Virus genome (UHGV): UHGV-0020221
DNA length: 20,399 bases
Origin: a virus
Reading direction: 5' to 3' (one strand)
Positions 17,536 through 19,527 of this stretch are shown here, piece after piece; the stretch's first letter is position 1, and every line of letters begins with the position of its first letter. Under the pieces are notes generated by a model. That model searched no databases and was not told the origin of the DNA. It worked only from the letters and a program-made list of their open reading frames with translations. The position numbers were made by a program, and so were the translations under genes.

Positions 17536-19527
17536 ATGACAGACATTACAGCCAATGTTGTAGTGAGCATGCCTTCGCAACTCTTCACTATGGCGCGTTC
17601 TTTTAAAGCCGTAGCTAATGGCAAAATTTATATCGGTAAAATTGACACTGACCCGGTAAATCCTGATAACCAGATTCAGGTCTATGTTGAGAACGAAGAT
17701 GGTTCTCACGTTCCTGTTGCACAGCCAATCGTCATCAATGCCGCTGGGTATCCAGTATATAACGGACAGATTGCCAAATTCGTAACTGTGCAAGGCCATT
17801 CTATGGCTGTTTATGATGCATGTGGTGCGCAGCAGTTCTATTTTCCAAATGTGCTGAAGTATGACCCGGATCAGTTAAGGCAGGAGTTAGCAAGTTCAGG
17901 TGATGATCTTGGAGATGCATTAATAGCAGTAAAACAACCATTCACCTTGTCAATAAGAAGGACGCAGCATCAAAAAAATGCCGAGCACATTAGTGTTAGT
18001 GATTTTGGTGCAAAAGGAGACGGCATAACAGATGATACTGTAGCAATTCAAAATGCTATTAATGCAGTACCAGAAGGGGCTATACTTGGATTTTATGGTG
18101 GTGAATTTGTTTTTGATAAGGTTGAATTGTTTAAGCCAATAACATTAGTTGGTGATGCAACGTTAATTCACAACGGATTTAGAATAAAATCTAGCAGAAT
18201 CCGATCACTTTTATCTGGCGTTCAGAAATGCAAGGATTACTCCGAGTCTTCAAGAGCATTTTATTGCTATGCAAATGAAGACCAAAGAGATTATGACGAT
18301 ATTCAGATTTTATTTAATAGATTTGAAGGTTTCTTTTACTCTACGGCATTTGTTGCAAAAAACTATTATTTGGAGAATGACCCTAATTCAAGAATTGTCA
18401 AAAACACAAAAGTAATAGGGTGTACATCAGTTGCTCCTGATTCTGTAAATGCCGGTCATTTTCAACATATAGGCGTTACAAATGCTGAAACATCACATAA
18501 CTCAACTTATGGCGGACAAAATGCAACATCATACAACTTCATTAACCAGAATGGATTTGTAAGGATTATAGGAAATTATGACCATAACAATAGCTATGGT
18601 TCATGTGAGCTTGAGAACTCAATGGTGAGTAACTCAGTCATATCAGGTAATACGTTTTCGTCATATTTATGGGTGGATGATACAAGTAATGTTACTATTT
18701 CTGGAAATACAGTTTCATCAGGGATCAAAGTAACATCGCAAACTGACGATGTTCATAATATAACCATATCAGCAAATACCACAAAACGGATTACTATAGA
18801 GCAATTTGGAGAATCTCCAACAGGTCTGGTATATGGTGCATTAATTTCCTGCAACACTATTACTGGCGACAGTGATGGAAGTTCAGACATTTTATGTACG
18901 TCACTTGTTACAGGTGAAATTTCATCAAATTATTGTCATGGATCAGAAAAAAATATATCAATTGTCCGCCTGGATTCTTCTGATATAACCGTTAGAAACA
19001 ATAAAGGAAACAAAGGATTACTTACAATAAGTAACGATGGTGGAAGGATAATTGAATATGGCAATGATTCTATGGTTCTGTCTGGAAGCATAGATAGCAG
19101 ACATATACATAATTTATTACATCCAGACACATCGTATTTAGATCTACCGGGGAAATATCTGCACGGAACTAAATATACTGGCAGTATCCCCCCCGGTTCC
19201 ACAGGAACTGTATCACTTCAAATACCATCAGGGGCAAGCCTTGTTTTCAGGGGGGTTTCTATATGGGTTCTAATTAGAGATGTTAGCAATAACAATATAT
19301 CGTCATTCAGAATTGATGGTTCATATAGAGTTGTTGGTGGAAGTGTTGGTCTTAGTTTTGCTGATGCTTATTCGAAACTCGGGGTGGATGCAAACTCTAT
19401 AACAGTGTCAAACAATAACAGCACTTCTGACAATATCAGCATAGCAATTAAAAACACAGATTCATCAAAAACCCTTCAGGTTACTGTTATGCCGGAGGTT
19501 TCAAGCAGGTTAGGTATTGAGGAATAG
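17536..19527 (+). CDS. Tailspike protein (P22 gene 9 family), 663 aa: conserved N-terminal head-binding domain plus unrelated beta-helix receptor-binding/glycanase domain
   Basis: GGAG Shine-Dalgarno 17525-17528. N-terminus [43 protein letters not shown]...[13 protein letters not shown]...VLKYDPDQ closely matches the recalled P22 gp9 head-binding domain. The rest differs and carries a pectate-lyase-superfamily signature ([24 protein letters not shown]) with Asn/Ser/Thr/Gly-rich beta-helix-like repeats. Confidence 0.9.

Follow-up and report, generated by a model that had tools for sequence, protein, structure and literature searches.

In the window analysed here, a 20,399-nucleotide (nt) stretch of the virus genome UHGV-0020221, the tailspike gene at 17536-19527 joins a P22-type head-binding domain to a cassette that was almost certainly swapped in recently and is shared with phages of other types, and we think it probable that this cassette encodes a capsule-specific depolymerase. 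The gene is an intact open reading frame (ORF) of 663 codons with an ATG start, on the plus strand like all features below unless noted. It is the tailspike gene of a P22-like (Lederbergvirus) temperate phage or prophage of Escherichia coli. The window corresponds to the late region of such a prophage, collinear with and ~95% identical to APC_JM3.2 and IME10 over the genes for terminase, portal, scaffold, coat, gp4, gp10, needle and ejection proteins. The tailspike gene follows the ejection-protein genes and an immI-like region, at the end of the P22-type virion block, and the annotation of E. coli Ecol_881 agrees with this position. Its product matches PHROG 20231 ('tail protein') over the whole length (E 3e-255) and is 99.1% identical to the RefSeq 'phage tailspike protein' WP_052273607.1 of Ecol_881. 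The whole P22-type gene is found in 10 complete E. coli chromosomes at 97-99% identity under the same label, and more than 100 near-identical protein clusters hold the tailspike at equal length and 98-100% identity. The sequence is already public in RefSeq and PHROGs and so not new, and the gene is of an ordinary, well-understood kind.

Sequence comparisons make it almost certain that residues ~114-663 form a recently acquired, exchangeable cassette. With other Lederbergviruses the gene shares only its nt 1-340/360, at ~90% nt identity. The segment 17988-19848 is 98.6-98.9% identical to the Uetakevirus (epsilon15-like) phages phiv142-3 and EC.W1-9 and to the TUM12368 prophage; in these carriers, and likewise in many prophages, the module is fused to an unrelated epsilon15-type N-terminus of 184 residues. 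A third carrier, a metagenomic scaffold with a PF18668 Tail_spike_N adaptor, is 98.8% identical from 17890 to the end of its contig. That this near-identity stems from an assembly chimera is very unlikely, given that complete genomes of independent origin show it. The first-pass annotation had proposed, from the letters alone, that a P22 head-binding part had been joined to a horizontally acquired foreign beta-helix at a domain-swap junction. These comparisons bear it out: the remainder of the gene recurs at 98-99% nt identity on two other, unrelated virion adaptors, and the junction lies after the head-binding domain, the usual point of exchange.

That junction proves to be more than one. Identity starts at 17890 in the PF18668-type carrier and at 17988 in the Uetakevirus copies, which defines two nested left breakpoints, at codon ~119 and codon 151. 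In the junction alignment with the Uetakevirus copies the breakpoint at 17988 is abrupt, with no flanking homology. The PF18668-type carrier thus has the linker between the two domains as part of the exchanged module, which the Uetakevirus carriers do not; among P22-type copies this linker is 100% conserved, while their head-binding domains differ by up to 5% of residues. The 'boundary sequences' of CUS-3 were also considered as the domain junction and rejected, as they sit upstream of the gene.

The right breakpoint lies outside the tailspike gene, with identity to the Uetakevirus copies running through the spacer into the next ORF (19604-19906). This identity is near perfect to ~19767, decays thereafter and is lost past ~19848, and identity to the Lederbergvirus 611R6 is perfect from 19689 onward. 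In the three-way alignment, the 79 bp at 19689-19767 are identical in the window, the Uetakevirus copies and 611R6, and a stretch shared in this way by three lineages marks a homologous crossover. The downstream ORF is itself recombinant, its 5' part being of Uetakevirus type and its 3' part of P22-like type. Within the exchanged block, a consensus scan predicts a terminator-like hairpin (19556-19575; GCCGTCTTCTTGTTGGCGGC then TTATTTGTG) in the spacer after the tailspike gene, and this spacer is identical in the Uetakevirus and PF18668-type copies. Five complete genomes hold the module twice, in a P22-like and in a Uetakevirus prophage (NZ_CP019029.1, NZ_CP051222.1, NZ_CP067342.1, NZ_CP064103.1 and NZ_CP098910.1), which provides a direct opportunity for exchange. 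Such genomes also suggest that lysogeny by one carrier of the module does not block the receptor for the other.

Base composition changes along the gene as well. The content of guanine plus cytosine (GC) is 0.501 in the virion genes (1985-15945), 0.442 in the head-binding part (17536-17874), 0.407 in the linker (17875-17987) and 0.361 in the remainder of the gene (17988-19527), where GC at third codon positions is 0.25 versus 0.52-0.59 in the terminase, portal and coat genes. None of 320 upstream windows of 1540 nt falls below 0.432 (mean 0.495, standard deviation 0.023), so that the drop in the module amounts to ~5.8 standard deviations and is not due to chance. The AT-richness reported after ~17900 is therefore real, and the uniform composition that would have spoken against a mosaic was not seen. 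The first ~115 residues had been described as P22-like and of typical GC content. The resemblance to P22 holds, as PF09008 covers residues 1-113; the typical composition does not, 0.442 being below the value of the head genes and matching that of the accessory region just upstream (15946-17535, 0.438). The module has a GC content of 0.36 in all three carrier types, versus 0.43-0.45 for other Lederbergvirus receptor-binding domains, and is thus compositionally foreign to every known carrier.

Profile searches and an AlphaFold2 monomer model of residues 114-663, built from 30 diverse homologues (mean predicted local distance difference test score, pLDDT, 85.8), delimit the parts of the protein. 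Residues 1-113 (17536-17874) form the head-binding domain, or virion adaptor (Pfam Head_binding PF09008, E 4e-66, 220.7 bits versus a cutoff of 24), and match in the PDB the N-terminal domain of P22 gp9 (1lkt, 2vnl; E 1e-44 to 8e-51) and Sf6 gp14 (7sg7). The linker or neck, residues 114-150 (17875-17987), is disordered in the model (pLDDT <50). Residues 151-516 (17986-19083) are modelled as a right-handed parallel beta-helix, the predicted enzymatic receptor-binding domain, which includes a cap motif of the pectate-lyase superfamily at residues 156-176 (18001-18063). PF12708 (Pect-lyase_RHGA_epim) scores above its gathering cutoff on residues 152-209 (43.6 bits versus 27), and with the predicted fold this places the module in the Pectate-lyase-like superfamily, as the motif and beta-helix repeats recognised at first reading had indicated. 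A low-confidence connector (residues 523-543) leads from the helix to a C-terminal beta-sandwich, predicted from the secondary structure of the model at residues 547-655 (19174-19500; pLDDT 72-93). This sandwich is kept in full-length relatives (46-62% identity) and absent from relatives in Arthrobacter phages, which have the helix core only.

Beyond the cap, known enzymes offer little guidance. In the PDB, neither the protein nor a profile built from 30 sequences found matches outside the N-terminal domain and the cap, with no solved relative past residue ~218, and scans of Pfam and NCBIfam gave no catalytic family past the PF12708 cap. The endorhamnosidase domain of P22 gp9, whose catalytic residues are E359, D392 and D395, was rejected as a candidate for the module: the gp9 chains (2xc1, 8tvr) align to residues 1-116 only, and the match of the C-terminal part to gp9 that would have contradicted the idea of a different receptor-binding module was not found. 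By sequence, the module is outside the catalytic families of P22 gp9 and Sf6 gp14, and it does not appear to belong with the K5 lyases KflA and ElmA. Membership in GH28, suggested by the RefSeq name of the Uetakevirus copy ('GH28-related'), found no profile match: Pfam gives no GH28 hit for the module protein at E up to 1, the NCBIfam rhamnogalacturonidase model reaches 21.6 bits versus a cutoff of 500 on the cap only, and GH28 entries of the PDB align only to residues 119-240. Of the GH28 catalytic signature motifs NTD, DD, GHG and RIK, the module recalls the arrangement only by its DD pair, D381 and D382, after E358/E360. A K1-specific endosialidase (GH58) was likewise discarded, as the N-terminal extension PF12218 reaches only 19 bits versus 26.3 over 26 residues and the predicted fold is a beta-helix.

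The module belongs to a small family: of 1.84 billion proteins searched, those matching at E <1e-30 fall into 34 representative clusters. More than 600 contigs stand behind the clusters of proteins that contain the module. Its members occur in E. coli phages (Kagunavirus fBC-Eco01, Gamaleyavirus St11Ph5 gp66, Vectrevirus) and Aeromonas phages, at 46-62% identity. Of note, some minor tail proteins of Arthrobacter phages, which infect Actinobacteria, are related to the beta-helix core (residues ~231-510) at 38-44% identity, and so wide a range of hosts is unusual for one predicted enzymatic core. Eight residues are strictly invariant in the 34 members, down to ~33% identity: Y268, N334, D349, E358, E360, N361, D381 and D382. 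The invariant residues lie on one face of consecutive predicted strands, with strands 244-247 and 265-268 (numbered as in the modelled construct) stacked at a period of 21-23 residues. From this invariance, D349, E358, E360, N361, D381 and D382, on successive helix rungs, are the candidate active site (codons within 18580-18681). The invariant carboxylates, which resemble the D...DD arrangement of GH28 and GH87, are probably the centre of a hydrolase, and the word glycanase, as applied to this domain from the start, is a prediction from its modelled fold and from these residues. An active depolymerase is what we consider likely. We regard it as unlikely that the beta-helix is instead a polysaccharide lyase (beta-eliminase) or an epimerase-like enzyme.

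Far less probable still is a non-enzymatic adhesin, or a functionless gene in a decaying prophage. The window is a prophage-like contig, and IS1A interrupts the P22-type tailspike copy in NZ_CP051222.1, NZ_CP067342.1 and NZ_CP019361.1. In the record of EC.W1-9 (PP445227.1, 5418-7546) the gene is split into an 'eliminase' coding sequence and a 144-nt 'hypothetical protein', so that a tblastn alignment needs two pieces, likely because of a frameshift or a sequencing error. However, the ORF of the window is intact and recurs at its full length of 663 residues across the clusters mentioned above, phiv142-3 and EC.W1-9 were deposited as complete phage genomes, and the strict conservation of the acidic cluster across the family argues for catalysis.

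The distribution of the module among hosts points to a capsule as the substrate. We surveyed 5426 complete E. coli genomes and found the module in 37; the O-types given below for individual hosts derive from the wzx and wzy names assigned by PGAP. Region 2 of the kps capsule locus of TUM12368, a module-bearing strain, lies between kpsM and kpsT and comprises a galactosyltransferase-related gene, a CgeB-family gene, wecB, wecC, a gene for a glycosyltransferase of 920 residues and a DUF6270 gene. This layout is that of K7 and K106 in the 2026 kTYPr catalogue, in which gene 9 encodes the 920-residue glycosyltransferase, gene 10 a UDP-N-acetylmannosamine dehydrogenase and gene 11 a 2-epimerase. 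A region 2 of this type is present in 56 of the 5426 genomes, ATCC 8739 among them, and in 21 of the 37 module-bearing ones versus 0.38 expected (hypergeometric P 3e-34). It is likewise present in each of the 10 hosts of the P22-type gene (P 6e-21). The prophages occupy at least three attachment sites: between sbcB and dacD, at ybhC, and near torI/dsdA on the argW side. Those of IR53017, SCZE5, VTB96816v and UID2309220041 lie at sites other than the first, which indicates that the insertions are independent. More than one clone is represented among the hosts: the core genes of IR53017 and VTB96816v, compared over 22.7 kb, diverge by 1.6%. On the strength of this host association, we give slightly better than even chances to a K7/K106-type group 2 capsule as the substrate. 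As an observation apart, region 2 of the TUM12368 kps locus (13532-21968 of the extracted stretch) has a GC content of 0.337, near the 0.36 of the tailspike module, both being far below the E. coli and phage backbones.

Several points weigh against this assignment. The hypergeometric P values ignore clonality, and we estimate the independent lysogenisations at nearer 6-8, a number that is still far beyond chance at a background of 1%. The locus fits K7 and K106 alike, and the two, which according to the kTYPr supplement differ mainly in the glycosyltransferase of gene 9 (90.8% identity), are not told apart here. The argument for hydrolysis also draws on what we take to be the repeat-unit structure of K7. 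Above all, 16 of the 37 module-bearing genomes, all with a Uetakevirus-type prophage, are without the K7/K106 region 2. Among those looked at, EC488 has a K1 locus, and the loci of KN13-4 and RS571 are of another group 2 type and of a group 3 type, respectively. The kps flanks of these exceptions are only ~96% identical to those of TUM12368, which makes them something other than simple capsule-switched siblings of that strain. The idea that they derive from K7/K106 hosts by such switching was therefore left unsupported, the kpsM remnant of RS571 also being only 84% identical to kpsM of TUM12368. A single alternative capsule common to the 16 exceptions was rejected too, as region 2 of RS571 is not shared, apart from a partial match in strain 98203, and EC488 and KN13-4 have the other types named above. 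In RS571, a frameshifted kpsM remnant followed by IS5 (NZ_CP034389.1, 828371-829725) lies beside yghD, before a complete group 3 locus; it looks like the scar of a capsule-locus replacement, with the Uetakevirus prophage and its module still in place. In the exceptional genomes the capsule locus may have been replaced once the prophage was in place, or else the module may have a broader specificity or a receptor that is not a capsule.

The last two options lead to the view that the module targets some other glycan shared by E. coli strains (colanic acid, enterobacterial common antigen, a core-linked glycan, or several acidic capsules with a common epitope), the K7/K106 link being a by-product of the lineages. 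The hosts with other capsule loci, K1 and a group 3 type included, fit this view, as do the match of PHROG 8280 ('colanic acid degradation') to residues 1-450 and the presence of the Phi92 colanidase among the fold hits of the module. Set against the enrichment of region 2 described above, we hold it to be a minor possibility.

An O-antigen is a poorer candidate again. The module would then be an endoglycosidase specific for one O-serogroup, as in P22, Sf6 and HK620, and the mixed O-types of the hosts would result from O-antigen switching after lysogeny. Most characterised Lederbergvirus and Uetakevirus tailspikes are indeed specific for O-antigens (PMC10408124). Moreover, Ecol_881, LD67-1 and SFAD3 have the prophage inserted between sbcB and dacD, at only ~17 kb from rfb, the O-antigen cluster and a hot spot of recombination, so that large O-antigen-switching recombinations could co-transfer or remove it. 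A fixed offset to rfb in all hosts was looked for, and failed for the four strains with prophages at other attachment sites. Nevertheless, the same gene resides in hosts of type O1 (Ecol_881), O2/O50 (SFAD3) and O83 (LD67-1), which makes specificity for an O-antigen unlikely; the repeat unit of O83 is chemically unrelated to the rhamnose-based units of O1 and O2. O83, also found in the module-bearing strains TUM12368 and B1, was rejected as a common host serogroup, with only 3 of the 37 genomes. DE142, the host of phiv142-3, is O2 (PMC7724020), and in a 2023 survey the receptor-binding protein (RBP) subtype of phiv142-3 was found at >=95% identity in prophages of O1, O5, O51 and O102 strains; no serogroup was assigned to it and a capsule receptor was proposed (PMC10408124). 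St11Ph5, which carries a relative of the module, infects an O5 uropathogenic strain independently of the O-antigen, its resistant mutants retaining wild-type lipopolysaccharide (PMC6393563), an observation that is only suggestive as this phage has two RBPs. Taken together, we consider an O-antigen target quite improbable. Of the target given at first reading as 'O-antigen or capsule', the second half is favoured, the hosts of the P22-type gene all having the rare K7/K106-type kps locus, and the first, given their O1, O2/O50 and O83 types, is unlikely.

In our working model, residues 1-113 dock the predicted tailspike trimer onto the P22-type tail machine, and the cassette made up of linker, beta-helix and beta-sandwich arrived recently by recombination. 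Together with the terminator-like hairpin and the 5' part of the small downstream gene for a membrane protein, it circulates at ~99% nt identity in three kinds of phage, of which one is P22-like and another epsilon15-like. The right-hand exchange was homologous, inside the conserved small ORF, and the left-hand one falls at the domain boundary or in the linker. The beta-helix would bind and cleave a surface polysaccharide, allowing the virion to reach the outer membrane, and cleavage would probably proceed by hydrolysis through D349, E358, E360, D381 and D382. The substrate would most probably be a group 2 capsule containing N-acetylmannosaminuronic acid, specified by a kps locus of K7/K106 type, and not an O-antigen.

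The class of P22, Sf6 and HK620 tailspikes appears by analogy to share both architecture and mechanism with the window protein. P22 gp9 and HK620, both O-antigen endoglycosidases, have the same succession of head-binding domain, beta-helix and C-terminal domain and the same genome position, and they cleave a surface glycan to reach the membrane, as presumably does the window tailspike. The endorhamnosidase Sf6 gp14 (7sg7, 2vbk) is the best solved sequence match, over residues 1-217 (E 4e-82), that is, head-binding domain, linker and helix cap, and it ranks among the top Foldseek matches for the helix. However, there is no sequence similarity past residue ~218, and the catalytic residues and Shigella O-antigen substrate of Sf6 are unrelated.

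E. coli K1 harbours the closest biological analogue, the P22-like prophage CUS-3. It too is a temperate Lederbergvirus with the same head-binding domain (90% nt identity over nt 1-359), behind which lies a module directed at a group 2 capsule, the kind of target that we propose for the window gene; in both, no further virion gene separates the tailspike gene from the attachment end. In contrast, CUS-3 has as its module an endosialidase of family GH58, which folds as a beta-propeller and comes with a chaperone, whereas that of the window is a predicted beta-helix, and the tailspike gene is followed in CUS-3 by the capsule O-acetyltransferase gene neuO and in the window by the ORF of 100 codons for a membrane protein.

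The same module on other adaptors is found in two settings. ORF6 of phiv142-3 (709 residues; RefSeq 'glycosyl hydrolase family 28-related protein') shares it from residue 151 of the window protein onward, at 97% amino acid and ~99% nt identity, along with the spacer and the start of the downstream ORF, but its N-terminal 184 residues are an adaptor of epsilon15 gp20 type that fits another tail machine. This orf6 (5411-7540) has been treated as a fitness factor in serum and under iron limitation, not as a depolymerase; a deletion mutant grew less in serum and in medium poor in iron, and it colonised less (PMC7724020). The kpsF, kpsE, kpsC and kpsM genes described in that work as 'K1 capsule genes' are common to all group 2 capsules, and so DE142 need not be K1. 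RBPs with PF18668 adaptors, such as the CBA120 tailspikes, gp66 of G7C and St11Ph5 and the Kagunavirus tailspikes, are represented by the third carrier (98%) and by relatives at 46-52% identity, on St11Ph5 gp66 (46%) and on the fBC-Eco01 tailspike. They differ in having other virion adaptors and in belonging to lytic phages, and no receptor has been assigned to these relatives.

The small ORF downstream of the tailspike gene (19604-19906, 100 codons) matches PHROG 1443, of unknown function (E 3e-55), and no Pfam family in a Pfam scan. Hydrophobic segments at residues ~9-44 and 82-99 predict a membrane protein. It follows the module in all 10 contexts with enough sequence, and in phages of P22-like and epsilon15-like type, as in many lambdoid ones, PHROG 1443 homologues (80-88% amino acid identity) come after the gene for the tail fibre or tailspike. 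As such homologues trail receptor-binding genes so widely, this ORF can act as a general right-hand anchor for exchange. Upstream of the module, the immI-like region has an Arc/Mnt-family repressor gene on the minus strand (17137-17388; Arc-like PHROG matches, 'Arc family DNA-binding protein' in Ecol_881), whose 3' end overlaps a bidirectional terminator-like hairpin at 17128-17147 (AACCCACC TTCA GGTGGGTT). Unlike those of P22, CUS-3 and 611R6, the immI-like region of the window is without an antirepressor (ant) gene. Two minus-strand ORFs overlapping the tailspike gene, 17446-17799 (117 residues) and 18936-19202 (88 residues), show no sign of being genes and are most likely spurious. A tRNA scan of the window found none.

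That tailspikes exchange their receptor-binding domains as modules is textbook knowledge, and the architecture described here adds little to it in itself. What is new are the precise breakpoints, the small ORF in the travelling cassette and the receptor prediction. The case is a clean and very recent one, with a single cassette across three virion architectures, both breakpoints mapped and a conserved downstream gene as the homologous anchor. It also recasts orf6 of phiv142-3, described in print as a gene for fitness in serum and under iron limitation, as a Uetakevirus tailspike, and supplies a receptor prediction for an RBP subtype left without an O-serogroup in the 2023 survey (PMC10408124). 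It is tempting to speculate, at somewhat less than even odds, that the module is the founding member of an uncharacterised family of glycoside-hydrolase-like beta-helices with an invariant D-E-E-D-D set, a K7/K106 depolymerase that travels as a cassette on at least three unrelated virion types. If so, it would be the first sequence-defined enzyme for the K7/K106 capsule type and the second case, after CUS-3 and K1, of P22-like temperate phages targeting group 2 capsules. The K7/K106-type capsule occurs in extraintestinal pathogenic and avian pathogenic lineages of E. coli, of which the O1, O2 and O83 hosts of this survey are examples, and an enzyme with this substrate could serve in capsule typing, in engineering the host range of phages or tailocins, and as an anti-capsule reagent.

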